A stretch of DNA of 24,000 nt from Acidimicrobiia bacterium. Lineage in GTDB: Bacteria; Actinomycetota; Acidimicrobiia; Acidimicrobiales; Bin134. The stretch covers positions 23,910-47,909 of the forward strand of contig JAJDTA010000212.1 of assembly GCA_022827405.1 (NCBI GenBank), given 5' to 3'. The notes beneath the pieces were generated by a model, which was not told the DNA's origin, did not search any database, and saw nothing but the letters and a program-made list of their open reading frames with translations. The position numbers and the translations under genes were made by a program. Below, piece by piece: positions 4,482 through 24,000 of this stretch (positions are counted from its first letter, which is position 1; each line of letters starts with the position of its first letter).

Positions 4482-6179
4482 CTAGTGGCGGATGAGGGTG
4501 CCGGGACGGTTGCCGGTGGGCTGGCCGTTGCGGAAGGTGATCTCACCGGCGCAGATGGTGGCGTCGTAGCCGTCGGCGGATTGCAGCAGGCGACAGGCGC
4601 CGGTGGGCAGATCGCCCACTACTTCGGGCAGATGCAGCCGCATGCCGTCGAGGTCAATCACGTTGACGTCGGCCCGCCGGCCCACCGCCAGTACGCCCCG
4701 ATCGTCGAAGCCGTACAGCTCGGCCGGCTCGGAAGTGAGCATCTTCACCGCCTCGGCAATCGACAGCTTCGGTCCTCGCTGCCGGTCGCGCACCCAATGC
4801 TGGAGCATGTAGGTGGGCAGGCTGGCGTCGGAGATCACGCTGCAATGGGCCCCGCCGTCGGCCAGCCCGACCACGGTCATGGGATGCACCATCATCTCCC
4901 GCAGGTCTTCCAGGTCGCCGTGGCGGTAACCGGTGAAGAACACCTGGAGCATCCCCCGCTCGCACATCAGGTCGTAAATCAGCTCGATCACGTCGGCGCC
5001 GGTCTTCTCGGCCATGGCGGCAACCGATTCGGACGGGTCGGGCTCGAACACTGGACCATCGTCGAACGGGAACGTGGCGTGCAGCGAGTGGCGCAAGATA
5101 CCCATGGCAGGATCGCCGGGGATGTCCTCGGCCAAGATGGCAGCCCGGACTTCAGGGCGGCGCAGCTCGACCAGCCGGTCCTCCAGCGGCAGGTTGTCGA
5201 GCAACTGATAGGCGGACCGCTTGGCGAACGGGTTGAACTGATCCCACCCGGCCAGCAGCCCGCCGGGGCGGCCCTGTACCTGGGGCACCAGCTTGGCCCC
5301 TTCGGCGTTGGCCCGCTCCACGATGTCCATCTGCTCGCGCCATTGGCCGGGGTTGACGTGTACCTGCACCATGGTGAAGGTGATGGCCCGGCCGGTTTCC
5401 AGGCTGAGGCGCCGATAGAGCTCCACCTCGCGTATGGGGGCGTCGGGATCCTCGCCCATCGATCCAGCCGGTACCACCTCTACCAGCGACTGGCCGTCGA
5501 GCGCGCCCATGATGGCGGCCAGCTCTTCATGATCGGCGAAGGTTCCCGGCACCGGCACTCCCGAAAGCGACGTGTGCATCGGCAGCCGGTTGGTGGAGAA
5601 CGCCACCGCGCCGGCCTGGGTTCCCTCGCCCACGATGCGGGCCATCTCGGTCAACTCCGCGGCGGTGGCCGACTCAGGCGTGGCCCCCCGCTCTCCCATC
5701 ACATAGGCCCGCACCGCTCCGTGGGGTACTTGGGCGGCCACATCGATGGTGCGGCCCAGCCTTTCCAGCTCGTCGAGATACTCGGGGAAGGTCTCCCACC
5801 GCCAGGTGATCCCCTCGTGGAGGGCGGCGCCGGGGATGTCCTCGACACCCTCCATCAGCTCGATCAGCCAGTCGTGGCGGCTGGGATCGGCGGGGGCGAA
5901 CCCCACGCCGCAGTTGCCCATCACCACCATTGTCACTCCATGCCACGCCGAGGGGGCCATGATCGGATCCCAGGTGGCCTGGCCGTCGTAGTGGGTGTGG
6001 ACATCGACAAACCCTGGAGTCACATAGCGGCCTGCGGCCTCAATCACCTCAACAGCATCGGCGTCGATACGGCTCTCGATGGCGGCCACCCGCCCGCCCG
6101 AAATCGCCACGTCGGCCACCGTCGGCGCAGTCCCCGTCCCGTCGACAACCGTGCCCCCGCGAATCAACAGATCAAGCAT
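4482..6179 (-). CDS. N-acyl-D-amino-acid deacylase (D-aminoacylase) family amidohydrolase
   Basis: 565-aa ORF. The N-terminus [13 protein letters not shown]...ISGGRVAAI is followed by the metal-binding [12 protein letters not shown] (HxH) block typical of the D-aminoacylase branch of the amidohydrolase superfamily. Confidence 0.85.
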
Positions 6180-6875: not shown

Positions 6876-6934
6876 CAGCCTACCCGAGCCCAACCTCTGC
6901 CACCATGGCCCAAAAGCCCGAACTGGGACTGGGA

Positions 6935-7753
6935 TCAACCGCGGCGGATTCGGCCGCGCAGCGCCCGGAAGGCCAATGATTGGGCCAAAAGCCCCACCAC
7001 GCCGATAGACAGCAGCGCCCGGCCCAGCGCCCATCCGTCCCAGCCCGAGAACAGCGAGCGCATGCCCTCCAGGGAATAGGTCATGGGGTTGAACCAGGTG
7101 ATGGCAGCCAGCCAGTCGGTCATCACATCGCGGCTTACCCAGGCGGTGGTCAAGAACATGAAGGGGAAGAACAACAAGAAGCTGGAGTTGACCGCGGCGG
7201 GGTTCCCGGTGCGCAGCGCGATGGCGTAGGGGAAGCCGGTGAAGGCCAGCCCCCACAGCGCGCCGAACAGCACGAACACCAACAGGCCCAGCACCCCGGT
7301 GGCGCCAAAGCTCACGCCGATGGCGAATCCCAACGCGATCACCGGTATGGCCATAACCACGAACAGGGTGAAGTCGGCCACCATGAGCCCCAACAGCAGG
7401 GCATAGCGGTTCACCGGGGTCATCAACAGCCGATCGAAGTAGCCGTCGGCGATGTCGATCACCAGCGAGTTGGCCCGGGACATGCCGGTCACCGCGGTCA
7501 TGATGGCCACCGGCAACTGGAAGGCCTTGTAGTCGATGTCGGAGACCACATCGCCGGCCAGGTTCTGGATGGCCCCGATGGTGACCATCAAGAAGAACAG
7601 GGGGATCAACATGGCGGGAATGATGGCTTCCAAGTCGCGGGGCAACAGCCGCAGCGCTCGGCTGGACACCGAGGCCATATCGCCGAAAAACCCCGACGGT
7701 CGGGCCCTGATCACATCGCCAGCAGGCCGGCCGGACAGAACGGCCTCGCTCAT
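6935..7753 (-). CDS. ABC-2 type transporter permease (DrrB-like)
   Basis: 272-aa ORF with about six hydrophobic spans. Its ATG overlaps the stop of the upstream ABC ATPase gene (ATGA, 7750-7753), indicating translational coupling. Confidence 0.85.
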   Translation of the reverse strand: MSEAVLSGRPAGDVIRARPSGFFGDMASVSSRALRLLPRDLEAIIPAMLIPLFFLMVTIGAIQNLAGDVVSDIDYKAFQLPVAIMTAVTGMSRANSLVIDIADGYFDRLLMTPVNRYALLLGLMVADFTLFVVMAIPVIALGFAIGVSFGATGVLGLLVFVLFGALWGLAFTGFPYAIALRTGNPAAVNSSFLLFFPFMFLTTAWVSRDVMTDWLAAITWFNPMTYSLEGMRSLFSGWDGWALGRALLSIGVVGLLAQSLAFRALRGRIRRG

Positions 7754-8691
7754 TCCTCCACCTCGATCCGGGCGCCGGTGAGCTCCAAGAACACGTCGTC
7801 GAGGGTGGTGGGATGGATCGACAGGTCCAACACCTCCACCCCGGCCGCCGACAGCGCCACCGCCACCGGGCTGACCACCGAGGCCCCATCGCCGGTGGCC
7901 GCGCTCACCTCGTTGCCATAGATATCGATATTGCTGATCCCCGACACCCCACCGATGGCCTCCGCCGCCACCTCGGGGTCGCCCGCTACCCGAGCCACCA
8001 CCACGTCGGACCCCACCGTGCGCTTGAGCTCATCGGGGGCGCCCTCGGCCACCAAACGGCCGTGGTCCAAGATACCCACCCGGTGGGTGAGAGCATCGGC
8101 CTCCTCCAGGTATTGGGTGGTGAGGAAGATGGTCATGCCCAGGTCGCGGTTCAGCCGGCGAATCTGCTCCCACACCACCGCCCGGCTTAAGGGGTCGAGG
8201 CCGGTGGTGGGCTCGTCCAAAAACAGCACCTCGGGGTTGTGCATCAGCGCGGCAGCCAGATCCAAACGGCGCTTCATGCCTCCTGAGTAGGTGGACACCC
8301 GCCGGTCGATGGCGTCCATCTCCAACAAGGGGGCCAATTCCTCGATGCGGGTGGCGATGTCTGGGCGCTCCAAGCCGTAGTAGCGGCCTTGCAGCATCAG
8401 CGTCTCCCGGCCGGTGAGCTTGCCGTCAAGAGCAGCATCTTGAAGGGCCACGCCGATGCTGAGCCGCACCAGATCGCCTTGCTGGGCCACGTCGTAGCCC
8501 GCCACCGAGGCCGACCCCGCAGTCAACGACGCCAAGGTGCACAGCATCCGCACCACAGTGGACTTGCCCGCGCCGTTTGGCCCCAAGAATCCGTAGACCT
8601 CTCCGGCAGCTACCTCCAGATCGAGCGAGTCGACCGCCACCACTTCGCCATAGGTTCGGCGCAATCCACGAGCGGAAATGGCAGCCGACAC
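7750..8691 (-). CDS. ABC transporter ATP-binding protein (DrrA-like)
   Basis: Walker A GPNGAGKST, signature YSGGMKRRL and Walker B LFLDEPTTGLD are present. GTG at 8691 is the preferred start because it gives the usual short lead-in to ISARGLRRTYG. The track ORF runs to 8748, which would overlap the divergent crotonase gene. The start is uncertain. Confidence 0.88.
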   Translation of the reverse strand: MSAAISARGLRRTYGEVVAVDSLDLEVAAGEVYGFLGPNGAGKSTVVRMLCTLASLTAGSASVAGYDVAQQGDLVRLSIGVALQDAALDGKLTGRETLMLQGRYYGLERPDIATRIEELAPLLEMDAIDRRVSTYSGGMKRRLDLAAALMHNPEVLFLDEPTTGLDPLSRAVVWEQIRRLNRDLGMTIFLTTQYLEEADALTHRVGILDHGRLVAEGAPDELKRTVGSDVVVARVAGDPEVAAEAIGGVSGISNIDIYGNEVSAATGDGASVVSPVAVALSAAGVEVLDLSIHPTTLDDVFLELTGARIEVEE

Positions 8692-10306: not shown

Positions 10307-12157
10307 CTAGCCCCCGCCCATTCGGGCCTCTAGGGCAAGGGCCCGAGGGCTCACTGAGAGGTCGAAGTCGGTGCTGCCCAGCGTGCCCTCGTTCCACACC
10401 TCCCGGTCCACCAGCCAGTTGCCCCAACCCGAGAACCAGCCGTCGTGGTACGACTCGAACTGGGGGGCCCACCAGTCCCGCAGTGGCATTCGGGTGGTCT
10501 GATGGTCGGCCAGATCGGGAGCAGCTCCGGTGATGCCGCTCTCGGGGAGGGCGAGAACGAAATCAGCAGAGGTGTGTTGCGCCGAGGCGCGGTCGGTCCA
10601 CTGGCGCCCCTCGTAGTCGCGGAAGTACCACAGATTGGGCACCGAGATGGCGGTGTCCACCGCGACGGTCACCGGCCCCTCGCCCACGGAGGTGCTGTAC
10701 TCATTGAGCGCCTCGATGCGGTGCACAGTGTCGACGTAGTCATGGGTGGTGTGAACCTGGGTCAACAGCTCCCGGGGGTCGCGCTGGTTCACGTAGTTGG
10801 ATCTCCAGGAGACGAATAGCGTGCTGGCCAACAGCCCGGCCAGCACCGCCCAAACCGGAAGCATCCACGCCGTTCTCCTCGCCCGCCACAGCACCTGAAC
10901 GCCGTAGCCGGCCAGAAAGGCCATCGGCACCAGGATGTGCAGGGCCAGCCAGGGGAACCGCTCGCTGGCCCAGGAGTACGAGAACCAACTGGCCACCGCA
11001 GTCCACACCAGGAACTTGCCGACAAATGTGGGATTGCGGAACACGTGAACCGTGCCGATCACCGCCAGGATGCACACCAAGTACTCGTATAGCCCGATGG
11101 TGTACAGGTAGTAGTGCCACGGCTCGCTGCCCCGGTTGGTGTCCTGTTCGCCCCGCCAGTAGGTGATGCCCTCGGTGAAGCCGTCCAAAAAGCCCGCTGA
11201 ATTGGTGAAGAAGACGGTGAACCACAGGGCGAAGAAGAACAGGAAAACCGCGGCGGCCAGAGCCCACCCCCACCACGGCACGCGCCGAGCGGCCTGCACC
11301 ATCGGCAGACCCCAGATCTGGGCCGGGCTGGCCTGCATGAGGATGACCATCACCAAGAGCACCCCGTAGACGCCCAGGGTGACGAAGACCTCGGCCTCGT
11401 AGTAGGCGCTCACTCCGAAGGCGATGCCCATGGGCACCAGTCCGGCCGGCAGCATCCACGACCACCCGGCGAAGCCGCCGGGCCTGGGAGCGCGGTCCCC
11501 GCTGTTCTGTTGGGCGGCCTGCTCGGCCAACAGGGCCAAGAAGAACCCCCCGAAAATGAACACGACAATGAACGTGGTCTCTTTGACCGCGAAGCCCGCG
11601 GCCAGCAAGAAGCCCAACAGCGCGGGCAACAAGAGCCGAGGGCGGTCCAAAAGCCGGACGATCACCACCATCATCGCCAGCGTGATGAACGCGGTCAGCG
11701 AGTCTTCCCGGCCCAGTCGGGTCATGTAGAGGGCGATGGGGCTGAACGCCAGCACCGCCGAAGCGGTTACGGTCACCGCCGGGCCGAGCGACCGGCGCAG
11801 GAACCACGGCAACACAATCAGCCCTACCCCGGCCAAAACAGCCACCATGCGGGCGGTGGTGTGCGACTCCCCGAACACCCAAAAGAACGCAGCCGTCAGA
11901 TAAAAGCGCAGCGGCCCGTGGTACACCGGGTCGTACCCCTCGAAGGTGCCCTCCAGGAACTGCCATGAGTACCAGGCATCGATGCTCTCGTCATGGTGCA
12001 GGGGACGCTCGGCCAATTCCACGAGGCGTAGCACCAGCCCGGCCACCGCCATCGCCCCTACGGCAATGGCCAGCGCCGTCTCCGGGCGACGGCGCCAGAA
12101 CTCCAATGGACTCCAACCCTCCAGGGGAACTCCTCGCTCGCGGGTCATGGCTCGCAT
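10307..12157 (-). CDS. TIGR03663-family polytopic membrane protein (GT-C / PMT-like; 'Agl23-like')
   Basis: 616-aa ORF with more than 10 hydrophobic spans and a soluble C-terminal ~170 aa. The N-terminal loop carries RPLHHDESIDAW (DE) and VYHGPLRFY (HGP). As I recall them, these are the invariant residues named in the TIGR03663 definition. The start lies 3 nt after the stop of the upstream membrane-protein gene. Confidence 0.8.
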   Translation of the reverse strand: MRAMTRERGVPLEGWSPLEFWRRRPETALAIAVGAMAVAGLVLRLVELAERPLHHDESIDAWYSWQFLEGTFEGYDPVYHGPLRFYLTAAFFWVFGESHTTARMVAVLAGVGLIVLPWFLRRSLGPAVTVTASAVLAFSPIALYMTRLGREDSLTAFITLAMMVVIVRLLDRPRLLLPALLGFLLAAGFAVKETTFIVVFIFGGFFLALLAEQAAQQNSGDRAPRPGGFAGWSWMLPAGLVPMGIAFGVSAYYEAEVFVTLGVYGVLLVMVILMQASPAQIWGLPMVQAARRVPWWGWALAAAVFLFFFALWFTVFFTNSAGFLDGFTEGITYWRGEQDTNRGSEPWHYYLYTIGLYEYLVCILAVIGTVHVFRNPTFVGKFLVWTAVASWFSYSWASERFPWLALHILVPMAFLAGYGVQVLWRARRTAWMLPVWAVLAGLLASTLFVSWRSNYVNQRDPRELLTQVHTTHDYVDTVHRIEALNEYSTSVGEGPVTVAVDTAISVPNLWYFRDYEGRQWTDRASAQHTSADFVLALPESGITGAAPDLADHQTTRMPLRDWWAPQFESYHDGWFSGWGNWLVDREVWNEGTLGSTDFDLSVSPRALALEARMGGG

Positions 12158-15093: not shown

Positions 15094-16092
15094 ATGCCCA
15101 CTACCCCTTCAAACGACCCTGGCCCTTCAAACGACCTTGGCCCACCCGGAGCCGCCGCCGACATCGACGCGATCCTGATCGTCTCCTTCGGAGGCCCCGA
15201 GGGGCCCGACGACGTGATGCCGTTTCTGCGCAACGTGACCCGGGGACGGGGCATCGGTGACGAGCGATTGGCTGCGGTGGCCGAGCACTACCACCTGTTC
15301 GGCGGGGTCAGCCCCATCAACCAGTGCAACCGCGACTTGATCTCCGCCTTGGCCGATGAGCTGGCCAGGCGCGGGGTAAAACTCCCGGTGTACTGGGGTA
15401 ACCGGAACTGGTCGCCCATGCTGGGCGACACGGTGGCCCAGATGCGCGACGACGGCATCTCCCAGGCGGTGGGATTCGTAACTTCGGCGTTCGGCTCATA
15501 CTCGGGCTGCCGCCAATACTCCGAAGACATTGAACAGGCTCGGGCCGCGGTCGGCCCCGACGCGCCAGTGGTGTACAAGCTGCCTCCGTTCTGGGACCAG
15601 GAGGGCTTCATGTCGGCCATGGCCGACTTTCTGGCCGCGGCCTGCCAGACCGACCCGACCGCCCCGGTGTTGTTCACCGCCCACAGCATTCCCGACACCA
15701 TGGCGGCCACCGCCCCCTACATCGCCCAGCTCAACGAGGCCTGCCTCCGGGTGGCGGCCCGCGCCGGAACGAGCCAATGGTCGCTGGCCTATCAGAGCCG
15801 CAGCGGCCCGCCCCACGTTCCCTGGCTCGAACCGGACGTCGGCAGCGAGTTGGATCGGCTGGCCGCGGGCGGAGCCGACGCGGTGATCGTGGTGCCGATC
15901 GGCTTCGTGGCCGACCACATGGAGGTGGTCTACGACCTCGACATCGAGGCCCGCCAGCACGCCGACATGCTCGGACTGCGATTCACCCGTGTCCCCACCG
16001 TCGGCACCCACCCCGCGTTCGTCGAGATGATCGCCAAACTTGTGCTGGGCCCTGCGCCGGTGGCCTGCCCCGCCGACTGCTGCCTGCGGTAA
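15094..16092 (+). CDS. hemH: Ferrochelatase (coproporphyrin ferrochelatase type)
   Basis: 332-aa ORF. Motifs present are ILIVSFGGPEGPDDVMPFLRNV, SPINQ, FTAHSIP (catalytic His) and PIGFVADHMEVVYDLD. No alternative in-frame start lies between 15094 and the conserved core. Confidence 0.92.
   Translation: MPTTPSNDPGPSNDLGPPGAAADIDAILIVSFGGPEGPDDVMPFLRNVTRGRGIGDERLAAVAEHYHLFGGVSPINQCNRDLISALADELARRGVKLPVYWGNRNWSPMLGDTVAQMRDDGISQAVGFVTSAFGSYSGCRQYSEDIEQARAAVGPDAPVVYKLPPFWDQEGFMSAMADFLAAACQTDPTAPVLFTAHSIPDTMAATAPYIAQLNEACLRVAARAGTSQWSLAYQSRSGPPHVPWLEPDVGSELDRLAAGGADAVIVVPIGFVADHMEVVYDLDIEARQHADMLGLRFTRVPTVGTHPAFVEMIAKLVLGPAPVACPADCCLR
15105..15140 (+). repeat. 18-bp tandem direct repeat (2 copies + 3 nt) inside hemH 5' end
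   Basis: cccttcaaacgaccctgg (15105-15122) and cccttcaaacgaccttgg (15123-15140) are 17/18 identical. The repeat is in frame and encodes PSNDPG/PSNDLG. Confidence 0.9.
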
Positions 16093-16118
16093 GTAGAGCT
16101 ACTCGCGAGAACCGATCT
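16084..16118. repeat. 35-bp perfect direct repeat, copy 1 (contains hemH stop codon)
   Basis: ctgcggtaagtagagctactcgcgagaaccgatct is identical to 16149-16183. It includes hemH ...CLR-TAA (16084-16092). Confidence 0.95.
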
Positions 16119-16148
16119 GGGCAGGCCCGCCTTCTCCAAGACCAGGAT

Positions 16149-16183
16149 CTGCGGTAAGTAGAGCTACTCGCGAGAACCGATCT
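16149..16183. repeat. 35-bp perfect direct repeat, copy 2 (contains AIM24-family gene 3' end)
   Basis: Identical 35-mer located 65 bp downstream of copy 1. On the minus strand it encodes the last residues ...EIGSRE-TAG of the 16164..16847 gene. Confidence 0.95.
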
Positions 16184-16847
16184 CGGTATTGATCCAGGCG
16201 ATGAGCTGGGCCTGGTTGCGGGTCTGGGTCAAAATGTCGCCGGGGCCGCTGAAGTGGAACACAAAGCCCTCGCCCGACTTCATCGACTGGATCGAGCGGC
16301 CCTCCACAGCCCGGCGGAGTTCGTAGCTCACGGTGTCGGGGAAGGCCAGCATGTGGCTGGTGTCCACCACCACCGTCTCGCCCGCGGCCAGCGAAATCAC
16401 GTCGATGGCCCCGTAAGAGGCCACCACCACGTTGCCGGTGCCGGTGGCGTGGGCCATGAACCCACCTTCGCCGCCGACCAGCGACTTGAAGCCGCTCCAC
16501 TTGGTGTCCATCACTACCGAGGCGTCGGAGGCCAGCCAGTTGCCTCGCTCGATGATCCATGATTGCGAGCCGTCCAACTCGATCACCCGGAGGTCGCCGG
16601 GCAATTTGGCGGCCACATCCACCCAGCCGCCCTCGGCGGGAGCGGTGTAGGTGGACACGAACAGCGATTCTCCGCCCAAAACGCTCCGCTTGAGCCCCTT
16701 GAGCATGCCGCCCTCCACCTTGGCCTCCAGCGACATCCCAGAGGAATGGGCCGACATGGCGCCCGCCTCGACCTTGACTTGCTCGCCCCCGCCCAGGGCG
16801 CACCGGGCGACCGCGAAGCTGGGGGCATGACGAATCTCTACCTGCAT
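16164..16847 (-). CDS. AIM24 / TIGR00266 (DUF124) family protein
   Basis: MQVEIRHAPSFAVARCAL...VKVEAGAMSAH...GGESLFVSTY...GGEGGFMAHATGTGNVVVASYGAI is the typical AIM24-family pattern. ATG at 16847 is preferred. An alternative start lies 6 codons upstream at 16865. Confidence 0.85.
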   Translation of the reverse strand: MQVEIRHAPSFAVARCALGGGEQVKVEAGAMSAHSSGMSLEAKVEGGMLKGLKRSVLGGESLFVSTYTAPAEGGWVDVAAKLPGDLRVIELDGSQSWIIERGNWLASDASVVMDTKWSGFKSLVGGEGGFMAHATGTGNVVVASYGAIDVISLAAGETVVVDTSHMLAFPDTVSYELRRAVEGRSIQSMKSGEGFVFHFSGPGDILTQTRNQAQLIAWINTEIGSRE

Positions 16848-16911
16848 GGGTGGGAGCCTACCCACCGTCTTCCGCCAACTGGTGGCGGTCTTGGGGGATT
16901 TCTATTGGCCG

Positions 16912-18480
16912 CTACCCGATGTTCTTGTCCTGGCCTTCCCAGTACGGCGCTCGCAGTTCCCGCTTGAGCACCTTCATGGCCCCGGACAGGGGCAGGGGCT
17001 CAGCCCGGAACTCCACCGACTTGGGCACCTTGTAGCCCGCGATGGTCTGGCGAGCGTGCTCGCAGACCTCCTCTTCGGTCAGCTCGTGGTCGGGCGTGGG
17101 AACCACCACCGCGTGGACCGCCTCCCCCCATACCGGGTCGGGAATCCCGATCACCGCCACTTGGGCCACACCGGGATGGGTGGAGATGGCGCTCTCCACC
17201 TCTGAGGAGTACACGTTCTCGCCGCCCGAGACGATCATGTCCTTCACCCGGTCGACCAAGAACAGATAGCCCTCTTCGTCGAGGTAGCCGGCATCGCCGG
17301 TGTGATACCAGCCGTCCCGGAACACCTCGGCGGTGGCCTCGGGCTTGTTCCAGTACTCCCGCATGTAGTTGCCGCCCCGGGCGCACACCTCGCCGATCTC
17401 GCCGGTGGGCAGCACGTTGCCGTCTTCGTCTTGGATGCAGAGGTTCACGCCGATCACCGAGCGGCCCACCGACCGCAGCCGAGGGCCGCCGGCCGAATGG
17501 TCTTCAGCCGAGAGAAACGTGAGCACCGACGAGCACTCGGTCATGCCGTAGCCCTGGAGCAGGTTCACGTCGGGCAGGTGCTCCAGCAGATGGCTCAAGA
17601 TGGCCTCGGGCATCGGAGAGGCGCCGTACACCAGCTCTCGCAGCGACGCCAGCCGCTCGGGCCGGTATTCGGGGTGCTGGATGCACAGGCCGATCATGGT
17701 GGGCACCATCACCGTTTGAGTGATGCCCTCGGCCTCGATGAGGTTCATCACCCCGGCGGGATCGAAGGCGGGAATGGTCACCATCTTGGAGCCGGCGGCC
17801 GGAATCACCAGCAAGCTGGCCATGGATGCAGCGTGGAACAGCGGCGTCTGGCTCAAGAACACGTCGTCGTCTCTCGTGCCTCCCAGCCCGATGGCCACGT
17901 GGTACACGTTGAGCATCTCGGCCCGCTGCTGGAGCAGCACCCCCTTGGGCAGGCCGGTGGTGCCGCCGGTGTACATGAGCACGACCGGGTCTTCTTCTTC
18001 GGGCTCGGGCGGCGTGGTATTGGCGCCGGCGGCCACCAGATCTTCGTAGGCCACATCGTGGGGCACGTCGCCTGAGCCGATGAGCACCACTTGGCGGATC
18101 GGGTTGTCGTCTGCGGCCTCCATGGCCTGGGCAAACAGCCCGGCGAAGAAGGCGTCAACAAAGACCACCTCGGTACCCGAGTCCCGCACGATGTATTCCA
18201 GTTCGGGACCGGCCAGCCGCAAGTTCAGCGGATTCACGATCCCGGCACCCAGGTAGCAGGCGTGGTACAGCTCCAGGTAGGACGCGCTGTTGAGGGCCAT
18301 GATGGCCACCCGGTCGCCCTTCTTCACCCCGAGCTCGCTCCCCATGGCATTGGCCAGCCGAGTAACCCGCTCGCCGTGGGTGGCGAAGTCGGTCCGGTAG
18401 GCACCGTCGACGATTGCCTCTCTGTTGGCGTACCGCTCCACTGCCGGGTAGAACAGCCGGTGATAGATCAGCTCTTTCAT
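16912..18480 (-). CDS. AMP-dependent acyl-CoA synthetase/ligase (FadD-like)
   Basis: ATG at 18480 gives MKELIYHRLFYPAVERYANREAIV.... AMP-binding motifs present are YTGGTTGLPKGV, GYGMTE and YHTGDAGYLDEEGYLFLVDRVKDMIVSGGENVYSSEVE. The 58 codons upstream in the track ORF are not protein-like. Confidence 0.9.
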   Translation of the reverse strand: MKELIYHRLFYPAVERYANREAIVDGAYRTDFATHGERVTRLANAMGSELGVKKGDRVAIMALNSASYLELYHACYLGAGIVNPLNLRLAGPELEYIVRDSGTEVVFVDAFFAGLFAQAMEAADDNPIRQVVLIGSGDVPHDVAYEDLVAAGANTTPPEPEEEDPVVLMYTGGTTGLPKGVLLQQRAEMLNVYHVAIGLGGTRDDDVFLSQTPLFHAASMASLLVIPAAGSKMVTIPAFDPAGVMNLIEAEGITQTVMVPTMIGLCIQHPEYRPERLASLRELVYGASPMPEAILSHLLEHLPDVNLLQGYGMTECSSVLTFLSAEDHSAGGPRLRSVGRSVIGVNLCIQDEDGNVLPTGEIGEVCARGGNYMREYWNKPEATAEVFRDGWYHTGDAGYLDEEGYLFLVDRVKDMIVSGGENVYSSEVESAISTHPGVAQVAVIGIPDPVWGEAVHAVVVPTPDHELTEEEVCEHARQTIAGYKVPKSVEFRAEPLPLSGAMKVLKRELRAPYWEGQDKNIG

Positions 18481-18534
18481 GAGCGCAACCGTAGCGCGAC
18501 GCAGGGTGGGCCGGAGCGGGTCGAAGGAGGCGAG

Positions 18535-19023
18535 ATGGACGTCGAAACCACAGTGCGATGGCTGAAGGATCGGGAGCTGATCAAGGAGGTTCCCCAGCGG
18601 TACGCCCGGGGAATCGATCGCATCGATTTCGACCTGGTGCGGTCTGCATTCCACCCCGACTGCCAGATCTCCGGGACGGTGATCTCAGGAGATCTCGATC
18701 CCTACCTCGACTGGACCGAAAAGGAGCTGCACAAGTTCGAGGCCACTCTGCACTTCATGGGCAACCAGTACATCGACTTGGAAGAGGGCGCCGACGAGGG
18801 CCATATCGAGACCTGGGCAGTGGCCTACCACATGCGCCCGGAGGACTCAGACGTGGGCGACCTCATCTTGGGCCTGCACTACTGCGACGACGTGGCCCGC
18901 TTCGACGACCGCTGGCTCATCACCGCCCGCACCGCCCGACCCCAATGGGCCCGCGGCGCCTTCCCCGCCCCACCTGAAGAGCTCAAAAGCACCTGGCACG
19001 ACGTGGATATCCGCCACGTGTGA
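18535..19023 (+). CDS. SnoaL-like / NTF2-fold family protein
   Basis: ATG at 18535 is preceded by a strong SD, GAAGGAGG (18522-18529). The 162-aa product reads DRELIKEVPQRYARGIDRIDFDLVRSAFHPDC...GHIETWAVAYH...RFDDRWLI, typical of SnoaL_4-type proteins. The last 10 codons plus the stop form repeat copy A. Confidence 0.8.
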   Translation: MDVETTVRWLKDRELIKEVPQRYARGIDRIDFDLVRSAFHPDCQISGTVISGDLDPYLDWTEKELHKFEATLHFMGNQYIDLEEGADEGHIETWAVAYHMRPEDSDVGDLILGLHYCDDVARFDDRWLITARTARPQWARGAFPAPPEELKSTWHDVDIRHV

Positions 19024-19041
19024 CCGAATGGCGGCGGCCAT
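18994..19041 (+). repeat. Recombination-core-like direct repeat, copy A (3' end of SnoaL-like gene)
   Basis: The sequence is tggcacgacgtggatatccgccacgtgtgaccgaatggcggcggccat. Its internal architecture is CACGACGTGG (18997-19006), ATATCCG (19007-19013) and CCACGTGTG (19014-19022). The arms are inverted repeats differing by one extra base. Confidence 0.85.
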
Positions 19042-19058
19042 CGGGAGGCCCAGTCAAA

Positions 19059-19086
19059 TTGGCATAGGTTATGCCATGCCTATGAT
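19059..19086 (+). promoter_or_regulatory. Candidate promoter with overlapping palindromic operator for vapBC module 1
   Basis: TTGGCA (19059-19064), a 16-nt spacer, then TATGAT (19081-19086). The perfect palindrome GGCATA-GGT-TATGCC (19061-19075) and a further CCTATG half-site (19079-19084) sit between them. The region lies 15-24 nt upstream of the antitoxin start candidates. Confidence 0.45.
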
Positions 19087-19100
19087 GCTATCTTGGTGTT

Positions 19101-19349
19101 GTGCGGACGATGATCATCCTTCCCGACCACCACCACGCTGAGGCCAAGCGCAAGGCCGCCCACGAGGGCATCTCGCTGTCGGAGTACATCCGCCGCCTGG
19201 TGGCCGACGACTTGGACCGGGCCAGCGCCGCGGCTGACCCCTCGATCGTGTTCGGGCTGTTCGACAGCGGAGGATCGAGGATCGCCAACGGAAAACAGGC
19301 CATGATCAGCGAGGCCATCGACAAGCAGTTCGCCGCCAAGGGCCTCTGA
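19101..19349 (+). CDS. vapB: Ribbon-helix-helix (CopG/Arc-type) antitoxin
   Basis: The 82-codon ORF starts at GTG 19101 or ATG 19110. IILPDHHHAEAKRKAAHEGISLSEYIRRLVADDL fits an RHH beta-strand plus helix pattern. The PIN gene follows 3 nt after its stop. Confidence 0.8.
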   Translation: MRTMIILPDHHHAEAKRKAAHEGISLSEYIRRLVADDLDRASAAADPSIVFGLFDSGGSRIANGKQAMISEAIDKQFAAKGL

Positions 19350-19352
19350 GCA

Positions 19353-19772
19353 GTGGCTCCGGTCTTCGTCGACACCAGCATCTGGTACGCCGCGGCCGAC
19401 GCCGGCGATGCCCACCGAGACGTCGCCCAGTCGCTGTTGGCCGAACGCGCCGGGGATCTCGTCACCAGCGACGTCGTGCTGGCCGAGTTGTGGAACCTGG
19501 TGACCGCCCGCACCAACCACGCATTGGCAAATCGCACAGTGGCCGCCATCGCCTCCGGCGTCGCCCGAATCGAATGCACAACCCCAGCCGACTTCGAAGC
19601 GGCCCAAGCAATGCTGGCCGACTACCCCGACCAATCGTTCTCCCTCACCGACCGCACAAGCTGGGCCCTCATGGAGCGCCTCGCCATCACCCAAGCACTC
19701 GCCTTCGACACCGACTTCCGCATCCACCGCTACGGCCCCCACAAAACCCAAGCCTTCACAGTCCACCCCTAG
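19353..19772 (+). CDS. vapC: PIN-domain toxin (VapC family)
   Basis: 139 aa. VFVDTSIWYAAAD (first acidic residue), VTSDVVLAELWN, SFSLTDRTSWALM and ALAFDTDF match the four conserved PIN acidic/polar positions. Confidence 0.85.
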   Translation: MAPVFVDTSIWYAAADAGDAHRDVAQSLLAERAGDLVTSDVVLAELWNLVTARTNHALANRTVAAIASGVARIECTTPADFEAAQAMLADYPDQSFSLTDRTSWALMERLAITQALAFDTDFRIHRYGPHKTQAFTVHP

Positions 19773-19789
19773 CGGCCATTGCCCACGTT

Positions 19790-19823
19790 TGGCACGACGT
19801 GGACATCCGTTACGTGTGACCGA
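19790..19823 (+). repeat. Recombination-core-like direct repeat, copy B
   Basis: tggcacgacgtggacatccgttacgtgtgaccga is 31/34 identical to copy A. It lies 17 nt after the vapC stop. Read in frame it mimics the SnoaL gene tail (WHDVDIRYV-stop versus WHDVDIRHV-stop). Confidence 0.85.
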
Positions 19824-19831
19824 TTCGCTGG

Positions 19832-19987
19832 TCAGAGTCCGAGCAGGTCGGCGATGAGCTCTCGGATCTGCTGCAATGCGACGGATCCGACGTTCGTGTT
19901 CGTCGTCTCGACGACGCGGTCGACGCTGATGGTGGTCGGCAGGTGTGCTTGGGCCACACCGAATCCGGTGACATCAACCTCGCTCAA
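19832..19987 (-). CDS. Hypothetical small protein (51 aa), divergent from the ATPase gene
   Basis: In-frame TTG at 19987 lies 6 nt downstream of a perfect AGGAGG (19994-19999, minus strand). About 80% of third codon positions are G/C. No recognisable domain (MSEVDVTGFGVAQAHLPTTISVDRVVETTNTNVGSVALQQIRELIADLLGL). The track ORF extends to 20017. Confidence 0.35.
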   Translation of the reverse strand: MSEVDVTGFGVAQAHLPTTISVDRVVETTNTNVGSVALQQIRELIADLLGL

Positions 19988-20021
19988 CCATCCCCTCCTG
20001 TTGGTAGTGCAGGGCACAACT

Positions 20022-20112
20022 GCGATTTCAGGAAATCGCGGCTGAACACCTCAGGATTACGCGACTGTAAATGCAATAATTTCGTGATTGAGTAGTCAAT
20101 AATTCCGCGATT
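20022..20112. promoter_or_regulatory. AT-rich divergent control region with palindrome and iteron-like repeats
   Basis: Palindrome GCGATTTC-AG-GAAATCGC lies at 20022-20039. The 16-bp direct repeats CAATAATTTCGTGATT (20074-20089) and CAATAATTCCGCGATT (20097-20112) are 14/16 identical and 23 bp apart. All contain CG[CT]GATT. In 20041-20120, 35 of 80 bases are G/C, far below the surrounding DNA. Confidence 0.45.
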
Positions 20113-20154
20113 AGGGGCTGCCGTGTTGCGTATTGGCAGCTAGGGTGGTTGAGA

Positions 20155-21432
20155 ATGGATGATCGACTGACTCCGGCCGGTTACCGGCCTCGGGTGGTGG
20201 ACGCAGAGGTGGATGGGGCGCTGCGGGCCTCATCTGCGGTGGTCATCGAGGGGCCGCGGGCGTGCGGCAAGACGTGGACCGGCCGACGCCATTCCCGCAG
20301 CGAGGTGCCGTTCGACGCGGTGTTCGAGAACCGTTTGGCGGCCCAGATCTCCCCCCAGGAACTCCTGGAGGGGCCGGTGCCCCGCTTGTTGGACGAATGG
20401 CAGCTCGCCCCCGATGTGTGGGATGCCATGCGCCGGGCCTGCGACGACCGGGGCGAGAAAGGCCAGTTCATCTTGACCGGATCGGCCAACCCGCCAGATG
20501 ACGCCACCCGCCATACCGGCACGGGCCGGATCATCCGGGTGAAAATGCGCCCGATGAGCCTGCACGAGAGCGGGGAGTCGAGCGGAAACGTCTCCCTTGG
20601 CGGGCTGTTGGCCTCTGAGCCGTGCTCGGCGCCAGCGCCAGGCCTCACGCTTCCCGACATCGTCGGCCTGACCTGCAGAGGGGGGTGGCCAGGTCTGTTG
20701 GGCGATTCGCCAGTAGCGGCCCAAAGGCAGCTTCGCAGCTATTTGGACGAGACAAGCCGCACCGATATCTCCCGTGTCGACGGCATTGCCCGCGACCCCC
20801 AAGGAGTGCGCCGCCTACTCACCTCTCTCGGGCGGAACACCTCTACCAACGTGACGTTCAAGACGCTGGGCGAGGACGCGGGCGGTAATGGCCAGACCCT
20901 GCACCCCCAGACAGTAAAGAGCTACCTAGCCGCTCTGGCCCGGTTGTTCATTACCGATGAGCTTCCGGCGTGGAGACCGCACCTGAGGTCCCGGGCCGAG
21001 CTCCGCAAAACGCCCAAGCGCTACTTCGCCGACCCATCTTTGGCCGTTGCCGCCCTGCGGACCAACCAGGAACAGCTCATGGAGGAGCTGAGCTTCTTCG
21101 GGCTGCTCTTCGAGTCGCTGGTGCTGCGCGACCTGAGGATCTACGCCCAGGCCAACGACTGGGAGCTGTCCCACTACCACGACAGCTCCGGGCTGGAAGT
21201 GGACCTGATCCTCACCAGCATGGACAACCGCAGATGGGCAGCAGCCGAAGTGAAGCTCGGCGGCGACAAGCTCGTCGAAGAAGGCGTCCAGTCACTACGC
21301 CGACTGCGAGACCGCATAGACACCAACCAGATGAGCGACCCTGCCAAACTCATGGTCATCACCGCCGGCGGCTACGGCTTCGAGTACCCCGACGGCATTG
21401 CCGTCGTCCCCATAACCGCCCTCGGCCCCTAG
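20155..21432 (+). CDS. AAA (AAA_14-type) ATPase with DUF4143 / PD-(D/E)xK-like C-terminal domain
   Basis: ATG is at 20155 (track start TTG 20149). Walker A is EGPRACGKTW and the Walker B-like block is PRLLDEWQ. The central YFADPSLAVAAL block is typical of DUF4143. The C-terminus GLEVDLIL...AAEVKLG gives a D...(D/E)xK nuclease-like motif. Confidence 0.85.
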   Translation: MDDRLTPAGYRPRVVDAEVDGALRASSAVVIEGPRACGKTWTGRRHSRSEVPFDAVFENRLAAQISPQELLEGPVPRLLDEWQLAPDVWDAMRRACDDRGEKGQFILTGSANPPDDATRHTGTGRIIRVKMRPMSLHESGESSGNVSLGGLLASEPCSAPAPGLTLPDIVGLTCRGGWPGLLGDSPVAAQRQLRSYLDETSRTDISRVDGIARDPQGVRRLLTSLGRNTSTNVTFKTLGEDAGGNGQTLHPQTVKSYLAALARLFITDELPAWRPHLRSRAELRKTPKRYFADPSLAVAALRTNQEQLMEELSFFGLLFESLVLRDLRIYAQANDWELSHYHDSSGLEVDLILTSMDNRRWAAAEVKLGGDKLVEEGVQSLRRLRDRIDTNQMSDPAKLMVITAGGYGFEYPDGIAVVPITALGP

Positions 21433-21466
21433 CCTGATACCCCCTCCCCCAGCGCTGCGCAGCGAC

Positions 21467-21514
21467 AGACGCGACTTGGACATCCGCCGCGGGTGATCGA
21501 ATGGCGATGGTCAT
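21467..21514 (+). repeat. Recombination-core-like direct repeat, copy C (degenerate)
   Basis: agacgcgacttggacatccgccgcgggtgatcgaatggcgatggtcat matches copy A at 37/48 positions in a gapless alignment. The central ACATCCG is retained. Similarity to A extends further 3' (cgaatggcg..gg.cat) than in copy B. Confidence 0.7.
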
Positions 21515-21544
21515 GCAGATTGCATGTAAGTATGCTTAATGCAT
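21513..21544 (+). promoter_or_regulatory. Operator-like palindrome cluster upstream of the second RHH-PIN module
   Basis: The sequence ATGCA-gat-TGCAT-gtaagt-ATGC-ttaat-GCAT holds two adjacent palindromes built from ATGC/GCAT half-sites in an AT-rich stretch that abuts the ATG at 21543. I could not place the -35/-10 hexamers confidently. Confidence 0.4.
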
Positions 21545-21770
21545 GGCTTCGCTTCAGATCCGCAACGTTCCCGACGATCTCCACCGCCGCCTGAAGGCCC
21601 GCGCCGCCCTTGAAGGGCGGTCGCTGTCGGAGTATGCGCTGGCCGAGCTGCGCCGGGCCATGCAGCGGCCCACAAGGCGCGAGCTGGTGGAGCGGGTGGC
21701 CGCATTCGAGCGCACCACCCTCACCGAGTCGTCCGCCGACGCGGTGCGCGCTGAGCGCGACGCGAGGTGA
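21543..21770 (+). CDS. FitA/VapB-like ribbon-helix-helix antitoxin
   Basis: 75 aa. MASLQIRNVPDDLHRRLKARAALEGRSLSEYALAELRRAM is the canonical FitA-like RHH N-terminus. Its stop overlaps the GTG of the PIN gene (GTGA at 21767-21770). Confidence 0.85.
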   Translation: MASLQIRNVPDDLHRRLKARAALEGRSLSEYALAELRRAMQRPTRRELVERVAAFERTTLTESSADAVRAERDAR

Positions 21771-22180
21771 TCGTCCTCGACTCCTCCGCGGTGGTGGAGT
21801 GGCTGCTGGGCCTTCCCCTCGCCGACGAAGTGGCCGACCGGATCATGGCCGCCGACTCCCTCCACGTTCCCGCTCTGTTGGATGTGGAAGTGGCCCAAGT
21901 GGTCCGCCGCTACGCCGCCGCCGGCGAGATCACCGCACAAATCGGCGAGCGAGCCCTCAGAGCACTCGCCGAACTCGACGCCGTGCGCTACACCCACGAA
22001 CTGCTACTCCCCTTGATCTGGAAACTCCGAGACAACCTCACCGCCTACGACGCCGCATTCGCAGCCCTAGCCGCCACCCTCAAGGCCCCCCTGGTAACCC
22101 TCGACACCCGCCTAGCCCGGGCCATTGCGGCCGAGATATCCAACCAACCGATCACAGTCGACCTGATAACGGGCCACTAG
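21767..22180 (+). CDS. vapC: PIN-domain toxin (VapC/FitB-like)
   Basis: 137 aa. The PIN acidic positions are IVLDSSAVVEWL, LLDVEVAQV, LTAYDAAFAALA and LVTLDTRLA. It overlaps the antitoxin gene by 4 nt. Confidence 0.85.
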   Translation: MIVLDSSAVVEWLLGLPLADEVADRIMAADSLHVPALLDVEVAQVVRRYAAAGEITAQIGERALRALAELDAVRYTHELLLPLIWKLRDNLTAYDAAFAALAATLKAPLVTLDTRLARAIAAEISNQPITVDLITGH

Positions 22181-22182
22181 CT

Positions 22183-22245
22183 GCCGCCCAAGCAATGCTG
22201 GCCGACTACCCCAACCAGTCGTTCTCCCTCACCGGGGGCCCTAGT
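22183..22245 (+). pseudogene. Remnant of a vapC (module-1-like) PIN gene
   Basis: 22183-22234 is 49/52 identical to 19599-19650, which lies inside the module-1 vapC. It encodes AAQAMLADYPNQSFSLTG versus AAQAMLADYPDQSFSLTD. After a 12-nt gap relative to vapC it continues with gggccct, then decays. It has no start codon, no 5' two-thirds and no partner antitoxin. Confidence 0.65.
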
Positions 22246-22338
22246 CGGCCCATCCGCCCCACCAGCAGCGCCGATAATCGAGTATCTTCATGTCACACTC
22301 GTTTCATGCCTAAGCTGGCCGAGCACGCTAGTTAAAAG

Positions 22339-22806
22339 ATGTCAGACCGCTCCTTCCTCGTCGTGTGCCAGACGGCCCGGTCCTCCGCCGTGGCGGTCCC
22401 TTTGGGCGTGCTGTTCCCTTGGGTGCGGGTCAGCGGGGAGACGTCCTACACATCCGACAGCGGGCTGGTGGTAGGCGTGTCGTCCACCACCGTGGAGGGA
22501 TACGAGACCGCCGACGGCATATGGATTTTCATACTGGGGTTCGCTGCCATCGTGGCCGTCGCCGTCTACAAGAACTCCGAGCGGCTGTGGACCCTCGTTT
22601 TGGCAGCCATGTTGTCGCTGGCCATCCTCGCGACAGCGATCACGGATATGGCATCGCTGCAGCGGCTGGCGAGCGACTGGCCCGAACCGCGGGAGGCAAG
22701 TGTCCACTTTGGTCTGTACATCGTGCTGATCGCCAGCCTCTTCCTGGCCGCGTCAATCGCATTGCTGGTCTGGGAGTACGCGAAACAGGACAAGGCCGAC
22801 CGATAG
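22339..22806 (+). CDS. Hypothetical small integral membrane protein (3-4 TM)
   Basis: 155-aa ORF. Hydrophobic spans are AVAVPLGVLFPWV, IWIFILGFAAIVAVAVY, LWTLVLAAMLSLAILATAI and FGLYIVLIASLFLAASIALLVW, with charged flanks. There is no clear SD and no recognisable family. Confidence 0.55.
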   Translation: MSDRSFLVVCQTARSSAVAVPLGVLFPWVRVSGETSYTSDSGLVVGVSSTTVEGYETADGIWIFILGFAAIVAVAVYKNSERLWTLVLAAMLSLAILATAITDMASLQRLASDWPEPREASVHFGLYIVLIASLFLAASIALLVWEYAKQDKADR

Positions 22807-22953
22807 CAGGGCCCTTCCGCAGCCAGCCATCTCGAGACCAAGCCCCACCCTCGCCAGCCGCCACCCGCTTCGACCACGACTGAGCACCTCCCATAGCTGT
22901 CTCAATCTCGTCCGACGAGCAGCCTAAGGGGTCGAGCGGGCAGACTACGGGCC

Positions 22954-23886
22954 ATGGGTGATCGACCAGTGGCGTTTGTGACCGGGGCTAGCCGGGGGAT
23001 TGGGAAGGCTTGTTCGGTGCATTTGGCCCGGGCGGGCTTTGATGTGGCGGTGTCGGCCCGCACGGTGATCGACGGCGAGCAGCGGGAGCACTCGTCCACG
23101 GTGAAGCGGTCGGACACCTCGCCGCTGCCCGGCAGCTTGTCGGCTACCGCCGCGCTGGTGGCCGAGGCTGGGGGCGATGCGCTGATCGTGGCGGCCGACT
23201 TGCTCGACTATGACTCTTTGGAAGCGGCGGCCGCCACGGTGTTGGCGCAGTGGGGGCGGGTGGACGTGGTGGTAAACAACGGGCGATATATCGGGCCCGG
23301 CCACATGGACCGCCTGCTGGACACCCCCATCGAGCTGCTGGACAACCATCTGAAGGCAAATTGCCTGGCGCCGCTGGTGCTCACCAAGGCGCTGTTGCCC
23401 CAGATGATCGAACGGGGCAGCGGCACCATCGTCAACATTTCTTCGGCCTCGGGCTACGCCGATCCCACCGAGGCCGCCGGCGACGGGGGCTGGGGCATGG
23501 GCTACGGCATCAGCAAAGGGGCCTTTCACCGGGTGGCCGGTTTCTTGGCCGTGGAACACGGCAGCCAGGGCATCAACGCCTTCAACGTGCAACCGGGCTA
23601 CATCTCCACCGAGCGCATCGCCCAGGACATGTCCCAATTCGGCTTCGAGGACACCGGCCAGCCCCCCGACGTGATCGGCGCGGTGGTGGCCTGGCTGGCC
23701 ACCGACCCCGAGGCCGCAGAGCTGAACGGCACCAACGTGGAGGCCCAGTTCTTCTGCCACGAGCGGGGACTGCTGCCCGGTTGGCCCGGCCCGGAGCCCA
23801 ACACCGCGGCCATCCGCTACGACTTGAGCGGCGCCATCTTGGCCGAGAAGGAAGCGCTGCTTCTGGCCCAGAGCACCCAAGAGTGA
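22954..23886 (+). CDS. Short-chain dehydrogenase/reductase (SDR) family oxidoreductase
   Basis: 310 aa. The Rossmann motif is VAFVTGASRGIGKA, followed by an NNG motif (VVVNNGRY) and the catalytic Y-x3-K (YGISKGAF). Confidence 0.9.
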   Translation: MGDRPVAFVTGASRGIGKACSVHLARAGFDVAVSARTVIDGEQREHSSTVKRSDTSPLPGSLSATAALVAEAGGDALIVAADLLDYDSLEAAAATVLAQWGRVDVVVNNGRYIGPGHMDRLLDTPIELLDNHLKANCLAPLVLTKALLPQMIERGSGTIVNISSASGYADPTEAAGDGGWGMGYGISKGAFHRVAGFLAVEHGSQGINAFNVQPGYISTERIAQDMSQFGFEDTGQPPDVIGAVVAWLATDPEAAELNGTNVEAQFFCHERGLLPGWPGPEPNTAAIRYDLSGAILAEKEALLLAQSTQE

Positions 23887-24000
23887 CCGACCAGGGAGCG
23901 GCCGGCGGCGTAGCGGCCGACCGGCTTGAGTTGTGCGCGGTCATGCCGGTGTACAACGAAGAGGAAATCGTCGGGTCGGTGGCGGAAAGCTGGCTCGGAG
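23883..24000 (+). CDS. Glycosyltransferase family 2 protein (5' fragment, runs off window)
   Basis: GTG at 23883 overlaps the SDR stop (GTGA). The frame is open to the window end and reads ...LELCAVMPVYNEEEIVGSVAESWLG. The hydrophobic strand plus PVYNEE is the usual GT2 N-terminal signature. An alternative start is ATG at 23943. Confidence 0.6.
   Translation, partial: MTDQGAAGGVAADRLELCAVMPVYNEEEIVGSVAESWLG

Follow-up and report, generated by a model that had tools for sequence, protein, structure and literature searches.

A probable displacement array of toxin-antitoxin and defense-candidate cassettes at an overlapping SnoaL/short-chain dehydrogenase junction in an acidimicrobiial genome

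We analyzed a 24-kb stretch of DNA from an Acidimicrobiia bacterium (24,000 nucleotides [nt] of contig JAJDTA010000212.1; this whole stretch is the window below) in which the 3' end of a small SnoaL_4/NTF2-like gene recurs twice before the next core gene, which encodes a short-chain dehydrogenase (SDR). Two toxin-antitoxin (TA) modules, TA1 after the gene itself (copy A of the repeat) and TA2 after the most distal copy (copy C), and an ATPase gene after the middle copy (copy B) lie in between. We read this region as a displacement array at an integrase-free hotspot, and we give this reading a probability of roughly two in three; what sets the region apart is its TA and defense cargo, its metabolic anchor gene, and its target, a pair of overlapping genes. 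The array was probably built in layers by flank-anchored homologous recombination, combined with illegitimate recombination, between strains.

A sequence-only reading of this DNA had reported three copies of a repeat derived from the SnoaL gene end; we confirmed the observation and extended it to positions 18901-22965. Copy A is the SnoaL gene end with its stop codon (18994-19032). Copy B (19790-19828) was identical to A at 34/39 positions and copy C (21467-21505) at 31/39, and the likeness of A and C reached beyond 39 nt (18968-19041 versus 21441-21514; 74 nt, 70%). We compared these values with the best match to A in 300 Markov-1 sequences of 48 kb that had the dinucleotide statistics of the window (mean, 22.8/39; maximum, 26/39), and the three reported copies stood far above the random maximum. 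No further match to A of at least 26/39 was found on either strand of the window. The three-copy architecture was also present in two independent metagenome assemblies (comparison loci are numbered L001 and upward), L001 (99.97% identical to the window) and L003 (98.3%, from a different sample), which makes an assembly artifact unlikely.

The SnoaL orthologues came from sponge-associated Acidimicrobiia, two of which are labeled Candidatus Poriferisocius. The tail ...STWHDVDIRHV was kept in the close orthologues and a related tail, WHGK..., in the more distant ones; because the tail is conserved in this way, the repeat descends from the gene end, as had been proposed. The earlier in-frame readings were also correct (WHDVDIRYV-stop in B and DLDIRRG-stop in C), and 3' of the stop codon A, B, and C each keep 15 to 20 nt of a decayed SDR start. 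All three features lie on the plus strand: A (18994-19041) is the functional SnoaL end, the stop, and an 18-nt SDR 5' relic, CCGAATGGCGGCGGCCAT; B (19786-19831; J -33..+4; nhmmer model positions 70-103) is nonfunctional and joins a SnoaL end to a decayed SDR 5' relic; and C (21441-21514; J about -55..+18) appears to be an older displaced end. The part of SnoaL that gets copied is its last ~30 to 120 nt.

Next, we compared 15 syntenic SnoaL-bearing loci (roughly 0.2 Mb), all of which kept the order acyl-CoA ligase, SnoaL ... SDR, GT2, gyrA-like. An empty single-copy site, which the sequence-only reading had suggested might exist in relatives, was found in the close relative L064, whose SnoaL protein is 95% identical to that of the window. 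There, SnoaL and SDR overlap by 8 nt (ATGTCTGA) with nothing between them, and the 8-nt overlap is also present in L018. The window aligned to L064 at 94.6% over 16209-19027 and at 91.4% over 22951-23998, and 15 nt of L064 (2805-2819) could be aligned on either side of the array. At the stop/start overlap, the window thus has an insertion of 3.9 kb (19028-22950), bracketed by an imperfect 15-nt outer direct repeat (19013-19027 and 22951-22965). Furthermore, pseudo-copies in L019 (11201-11274, E = 5e-10) and L020 (15778-15839) continue without a break from the 3' end of SnoaL into the 5' coding part of SDR. Since these pseudo-copies span both genes, the fused junction was the target of the insertions, and what is repeated is that junction and not the SnoaL end alone. 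The insertion hotspot therefore probably lies exactly at the SnoaL stop/SDR start overlap (ATGNNTGA) of the ancestral arrangement. We also considered the ~50 nt 5' of SDR (CCGACGAGC...GGGCC) as a fourth, decayed SnoaL end ("copy D") and rejected it, since a shift control gave 33% identity at register 0 versus 22 to 34% at other registers; only about 15 nt is demonstrably repeated around the SDR start.

Among the 15 loci, the SnoaL-SDR junction had nine different contents, ranging from empty to 7-kb islands, and the expectation that relatives would differ in cassette number or content was thereby borne out. The interval was empty in L064, held a 61-nt junction duplication in L015 and L016, and in L017 (10470-10598) held a 35-nt unit from the SnoaL end repeated 3.6 times in tandem between SnoaL and SDR. 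The variant in L018 was a 176-nt TA1 fragment within SnoaL, and L021 had TA1 alone. We found a TA2 5' remnant with another RHH-PIN pair on the minus strand in L011 to L013; a membrane open reading frame (ORF), a copy of the SnoaL end (87 to 97 nt), and a minus-strand VapBC pair in L014 and L063; MazEF on the minus strand with a partial SnoaL copy in L052, the only new architecture gained by a metagenome scan with SnoaL; and TA2 followed by 6- to 7-kb islands with insertion sequence (IS) elements in L019 and L020.

The L018 variant is an observation in its own right. At 10375-10560 of that locus (P0010), SnoaL is broken at the equivalent of window position 18908 by a piece of TA1 (window 19226-19401), which yields an in-frame fusion ORF of 168 amino acids, SnoaL::antitoxin C terminus; the remainder of SnoaL follows and overlaps SDR.

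The copies hold different SnoaL alleles, which indicates that they were not duplicated in place. The left half of C has CTGCGCAGCGAC, like L019 and L052 (12/12), versus 6/12 for A, and the 18 nt downstream of B agreed with the L052 allele at 13/18 positions versus 9/18 for A. Moreover, each copy with its cassette was collinear with an intact SnoaL followed by that cassette elsewhere, in line with the earlier suggestion that units were acquired stepwise with replacement gene ends. Copy A plus TA1 matched L021 (88%), where TA1 comes directly after SnoaL; B plus an adjoining relic of a mazF-like gene (window 19790-20026; the "small ORF" of the sequence-only reading) matched L052 9460-9696 at 86.9%; and C plus TA2 (window 21442-22188) matched L019 10435-11181 and L020 10437-11160 at 86% DNA identity, there directly after an intact SnoaL. 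The window thus shows an upstream gene followed by 3' fragments of it with modules (A-TA1, B-mazF', C-TA2), and each unit is gene proximal in another genome (TA1 in L021, mazEF in L052, TA2 in L019 and L020). Analogous displaced copies occur in L014, L019, L020, and L052. The copies are probably former functional ends that were displaced on the arrival of a new SnoaL end plus cassette; B and C would then be scars of displaced gene ends and not recombination sites, which we also hold to be probable.

Evidence for recombination in the flank came from L002. Compared with the window, this locus had 260 differences in 16163-18435 (11%) and none in 18436-19503 (1,068 nt), an identical stretch that takes in the 5' end of the ligase gene, SnoaL with copy A, and TA1 as far as the contig reaches. 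So abrupt a change marks a homologous-recombination breakpoint on the left flank, in the acyl-CoA ligase 5' end, and it indicates a recent transfer of the array's proximal part between diverged lineages. In L014, the functional end agreed with the pseudo-copy at 65/66 positions up to TGGCACG, beyond which the two follow different alleles (WHGKQLRHV versus WHDVDIRHV); a crossover in the final stretch of allelic homology would be expected to give this pattern.

The displaced ends also differ in their state of decay. Both sister strains, L003 and L002, have copy A in identical form. When the window was compared with L003, copy B had 7/39 differences and SnoaL, including A, had none; copy B decays much faster than coding DNA. 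Identity to the fused reference was 85% for B and 76% for C, and this better preservation of B is consistent with stacking in which the newest layer is the most proximal.

In the mechanism that we favor, DNA from a related strain with a SnoaL end plus cassette X would recombine homologously in the conserved left flank (acyl-CoA ligase/SnoaL), and its other end would join illegitimately inside or just behind the SnoaL 3' end of the recipient; the incoming DNA may have been linear, or else a circle that integrated through one crossover. Each event would put a fresh functional SnoaL end beside the new cassette and shift the previous end and its cassette downstream, where the displaced end would decay as a pseudo-copy. 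An illegitimate join further downstream would clip resident genes, and such joins would explain the half mazF gene and a 72-nt PIN fragment in the window. Events of a similar kind, anchored in the SDR flank, would account for variation on the right side. Given that the flanking genes overlap, both stay intact only where an insertion duplicates the shared bases, so that a junction repeat is guaranteed by selection and a recombinase is not required. The architecture, the polymorphism, the collinearity, the decay of copy B, and one flank breakpoint are direct observations; the enzymology (homologous exchange of the RecA type together with an illegitimate join) and the order in which the layers arrived are what we infer from them.

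Several points weigh against this reading. The preservation gradient is reversed in L020, whose distal copy has decayed less. TGGCAC(G) is the place of three switch points, namely, those of the copy pair in L014, of the second copy in L052, and of B at its left end, and this recurrence could hint at a preferred crossover site; TGGCAC(G) is also the final block that the alleles have in common ahead of their variable tail. In addition, the first insertion into the fused junction cannot have come from a cassette-bearing donor and requires a separate duplication or illegitimate event, for which junction tandem duplications of the L015 to L017 type may have supplied a permissive spacer. No competence, conjugation, or other DNA uptake route is known for this uncultured lineage, and our motif and recombinase scans cover fetched loci, short of whole genomes.

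The spacer idea can also be extended into an explanation of the whole region, which we consider unlikely. Slippage would have duplicated the overlapping junction and uncoupled the two genes, and unrelated insertions would then have landed in the neutral spacer, so that the repeats would be older than the cassettes and not brought by them. This would be the most economical origin of the first insertion and of the outer 15-nt repeat, and suitable duplications exist in outgroup genomes without a cassette: in L015, 26/28 nt recur at an offset of 61 nt, the duplication in L016 is shorter, and L017 has its tandem 35-nt unit. However, the L016 duplication is only marginally above background; a direct offset scan gave the 61-nt offset convincingly for L015 only, and Tandem Repeats Finder found nothing at the L015 and L016 junctions. 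Moreover, the spacer explanation accounts neither for the different SnoaL allele in each internal copy, nor for the collinearity with the SnoaL-plus-cassette arrangements of other strains, nor for the L002 flank breakpoint.

The spacer of L015 and L016 (10470-10560) has a structure of its own. It is a mini-ORF of 22 codons that overlaps the SnoaL stop with its ATG and the SDR ATG with its stop, so that ATGNNTGA stands at each end. Within either genome the junction copies resemble one another, but the two genomes differ in them (CCATGGGTGA versus CAATGAATGA), a pattern that suggests concerted evolution or selection for translational coupling.

Site-specific integration appears less likely still. 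A tyrosine or serine recombinase, encoded elsewhere or lost, would have used the SnoaL 3' end as attB, with tandem accretion of small integrase-less elements whose attP each carried a replacement gene end. The single-copy empty site (L064), the direct repeats that flank the units and, in the 15-nt outer repeat, the inserts as a whole, and the polarity of the array are what an att-type site would give; the three switch points coincide at TGGCAC(G), and TA1 of the window and TA2 of L020 both begin right after ...GGCGGCGGCCAT. The boundaries of the copies, however, vary in every case. The left ends of at least seven internal copies lie at about -29, -34, -41, -50, -54, -95, and -120 relative to the stop and the right ends at -25 to +55, and this heterogeneity implies imprecise joins. 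TA1 starts 6 nt 3' of the SnoaL stop in L021 and 34 nt 3' of it in the window, and its 3' flank differs too. Partial genes are left at joins: the PIN1' fragment, the TA2 5' remnant in L012, the 176-nt TA1 piece in the L018 SnoaL, and the truncated mazF. In unrelated contexts, TA1 homologues share only genes and promoter, and no consistent flanking repeats or conserved terminal motif was found at TA1 homologues in other genomes (L021 to L029). One of the nine other TA1 contexts differs: in L023, an unrelated Acidimicrobiia metagenome-assembled genome, the TA1 homologue is bracketed by an imperfect direct repeat of 26 to 44 nt (~44 nt at 3311-3354 and 4570-4612) amid pseudogene debris.

The internal structure of the repeat likewise fails to support a core site. 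The sequence-only reading had seen in each copy a tyrosine-recombinase core, with inverted arms around a specially conserved 7-nt center. The arms stem from CAC..GTG (His-Val) codons, and the DNA fold z-scores of A (-1.6), B (+0.7), and C (+0.7) were not significant. We rejected the hairpin, which is lost in B and C and for which an outgroup allele has no stem. The repeats fold no better than shuffles, and the judgment that they are not attC-like therefore stands. Copy B is not conserved between sister strains; in L003, its center is ACCTGCA instead of ACATCCG, with the 6-bp arms intact, so the claim of a specially conserved center does not hold. With these results, the variable boundaries, the differing TA1 flanks, and the relics at joins, we do not retain the core site.

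The searches for machinery gave the same picture. As had been stated, there is no integrase in the 24 kb: no gene of the window encodes a recombinase or transposase domain. None of the 15 related ~20-kb loci has a recombinase beside the site, and IS transposases occur only within the islands of L019 and L020. In 62 fetched loci (about 0.6 Mb, mostly from other bacteria, of which the SnoaL-bearing part is roughly 0.2 Mb), a scope short of whole genomes, the motif stayed confined to the SnoaL-SDR interval; its feared occurrence at unrelated loci was thus not seen in this DNA. A degenerate 30-mer had no match in IMG/VR, and we rejected an attP that came from a phage or plasmid; Rfam gave a single sub-threshold chance hit (20024-20044), and a structured element or RNA of a known kind was rejected as well. 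A trans-acting or lost integrase is needless for explaining the data, though one encoded beyond the loci covered keeps a small probability, the recurrent switch points at TGGCAC(G) being the one hint of such an enzyme.

We hold it doubtful that a dedicated trans-acting mechanism recognizes the SnoaL stop/SDR start overlap and mobilizes very small, integrase-less TA and defense cassettes with a replacement gene end. Such a mechanism might rest on a recombinase encoded at an unlinked site or on repair set off by a nuclease, possibly acting around TGGCAC(G), and, if real, it would constitute a chromosomal cassette platform unrelated to integrons. Finally, although CACGTG-rich, GC-rich coding sequence can give short spurious matches, chance similarity, a dispersed repeat of the repetitive extragenic palindromic or miniature inverted-repeat transposable element type, or an assembly artifact can be dismissed, given identities far beyond the random maximum, confinement of the motif to the SnoaL-SDR interval in all fetched loci, and reproduction of the architecture in independent assemblies of two strains.

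The displacement reading is set in the following gene map. The left core flank is an acyl-CoA ligase (AMP-binding) gene on the minus strand (16912-18486; Pfam AMP-binding, 5.6e-78), followed on the plus strand by the SnoaL_4/NTF2-like anchor gene (18535-19023; Pfam SnoaL_4, 3.1e-18, residues 10-133). TA1 (19060-19775, plus strand), whose limits were set by homology with L022 to L026 and L050 in unrelated contexts, consists of a palindromic operator region, an RHH antitoxin gene (19101/19110-19349; weak RHH hits), and a PIN toxin gene (19353-19772; Pfam PIN, 1.4e-13). After copy B comes the C-terminal half of a PemK/MazF-like toxin gene on the minus strand (19832-20026, matching L052; reading frame, 19832-20017); the complete L052 toxin protein has a Pfam PemK_toxin hit (4.4e-9). 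The sequence-only reading had joined this relic, as a small ORF, to the ATPase in one unit, but it lies outside the ATPase unit, which cuts it at 20026/20027.

The AAA_14/DUF4143 ATPase unit (20027-21438, plus strand; Pfam DUF4143, 1.3e-33; AAA_14, 8.2e-13) has an AT-rich upstream region (20027-20148), with GC falling to 0.525 at 20000-20199, and the gene itself at 20149/20155-21432; the protein belongs to the PADLOC candidate defense family PDC-S01 (4.6e-64). In the AT-rich region, window 20060-20110 contains a direct repeat, CAATAATTTCGTGATT / CAATAATTCCGCGATT, that may be an operator or promoter element. L020 has a 67 to 71% identical paralogue of the ATPase, inverted and set between two junction copies (15895-17178), and another copy lies 10 kb downstream in L011.

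TA2 (21515-22180, plus strand) has operator palindromes, a FitA-like RHH antitoxin gene (21543-21770; Pfam FitA-like_RHH, 5e-13), and a PIN toxin gene (21767-22180; Pfam, 3.8e-13). The partner genes of the TA modules adjoin with a 4-nt gap or overlap, and as adjacent small RHH plus PIN/PemK genes the modules qualify, by gene content, as putative type II systems (VapBC-like, MazEF-like). The cargo of the array is accordingly predicted to be addictive or defensive: VapBC-like TA pairs, MazEF, and a PDC-S01 ATPase. The array had been thought to end at 21514; it continues to the SDR start at 22951-22965. Two nt 3' of the PIN2 stop begins a 72-nt relic of a second PIN1-like gene (22183-22254, plus strand; 83% over 72 nt to 19599-19670 and 94% over 52 nt in a second comparison), the remainder of a second TA1-like module mostly replaced by TA2. 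The most distal cassette is a membrane-like ORF (22339-22806, plus strand) without a Pfam hit and with 62% amino acid identity to the ORF directly 3' of SnoaL in L014 and L063. The right border (22900-22965, plus strand) is a flank common to all occupied genomes (..GGCAGACTACGGGCC) and then the SDR start; the SDR gene is the right core flank (22954-23886, plus strand; Pfam adh_short, 2.4e-32).

Other variation was seen in and around the array. Differences between the window and L003 cluster at cassette borders (19046-19069, 6/24 nt; 19773-19835, 13/63 nt; 20046-20150, 11/105 nt) and inside the ATPase gene (20677-20726, 13/50 nt). SnoaL and most of the TA coding sequence are 0 to 0.5% different in this comparison, and the border patches are 5 to 10 times more divergent than the neutral expectation; short conversion tracts or local hypermutation could produce such clusters. 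Ends of independent Logan contigs coincide exactly at 19712 (L005 and L008) and at 19931 (L004, L007, and L009), which suggests assembly-graph branches, that is, structural variants in the sampled populations within PIN1 and the mazF relic. Outside the array, L015 alone has an insertion in the interval from AIM24 to the acyl-CoA ligase (6909-8255), made up of two small ORFs and a gene of the DUF222/HNH type, which is a second variable spot of the neighborhood. L001 departs from the window in the ferrochelatase-AIM24 interval (window 16084-16186, L001 2584-2751), where a tandem duplication of 65 nt and an indel of 18 nt set the two apart.

If the displacement reading is right, the region is an unusually legible growth record of an integrase-free hotspot: decaying ends date the layers, strains keep intermediates, and one contig catches flank recombination. 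It would extend sequential displacement from polymorphic-toxin loci to an ordinary metabolic gene pair with TA and defense cargo, in an uncultured sponge symbiont (Ca. Poriferisocius-type Acidimicrobiia). It would also mean that an overlapping stop/start junction can be a hotspot at which selection for both genes forces a repeat that mimics an att site, and it calls for caution when att-like repeats are taken as the sign of an unknown recombinase.

Among known systems, integron arrays resemble the region in that units are added at one end and in that large chromosomal integrons contain TA cassettes. In contrast to them, the region has no intI, attI, or attC-like folded sites, its units are imprecisely bounded, and each has its own promoter- or operator-like region. 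Accretion at tRNA or gene-3'-end att sites, including that of integrase-less elements of the cis-mobilizable (CIME) type, also yields gene-3'-end direct repeats that part the inserts, incoming DNA that restores the gene, and an empty site. Here, however, there is no integrase, repeat lengths and boundaries are heterogeneous, relics lie at imprecise joins, and inserts go down to 0.8 kb without defined ends. Many hotspots are free of mobile-element genes, and recombination is elevated in the core genes that flank them (Oliveira et al. 2017, PMC5635113). The region shares with these a fixed core-gene interval with fast accessory turnover (nine contents), the lack of mobile-element machinery in the window, and flank recombination (the L002 breakpoint); it differs in that double homologous replacement is scarless, whereas the one-sided events proposed here leave displaced ends and clipped genes.

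A sequential-displacement model has been proposed for the effector-immunity arrays of the Vibrio cholerae type VI secretion system (T6SS) and for Rhs orphan strings (Kirchberger 2017, PMC5361080), and Rhs and CdiA orphan strings are sequential or C-terminal displacement arrays (Jackson 2009, PMC2935791; Poole 2011, PMC3150448). As in those arrays, a conserved upstream gene would serve as the homologous anchor, the incoming module would bring a new 3' end without an integrase, and older 3' ends with their partner genes persist downstream as orphans separated by pieces of the anchor gene. Polymorphic toxin 3' ends with cognate immunity genes are absent here: the anchor is a small SnoaL/NTF2-like gene with a short, conserved tail and not a polymorphic toxin, the displaced ends are functionless scraps of 30 to 120 nt and not toxin domains, and the cargo is autonomous, consisting of self-contained TA pairs and a defense-candidate ATPase instead of immunity genes. 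The target differs as well, being an overlapping stop/start, so that the start of the downstream gene is partly copied. The region thus works like the displacement arrays but stands outside the polymorphic-toxin family.

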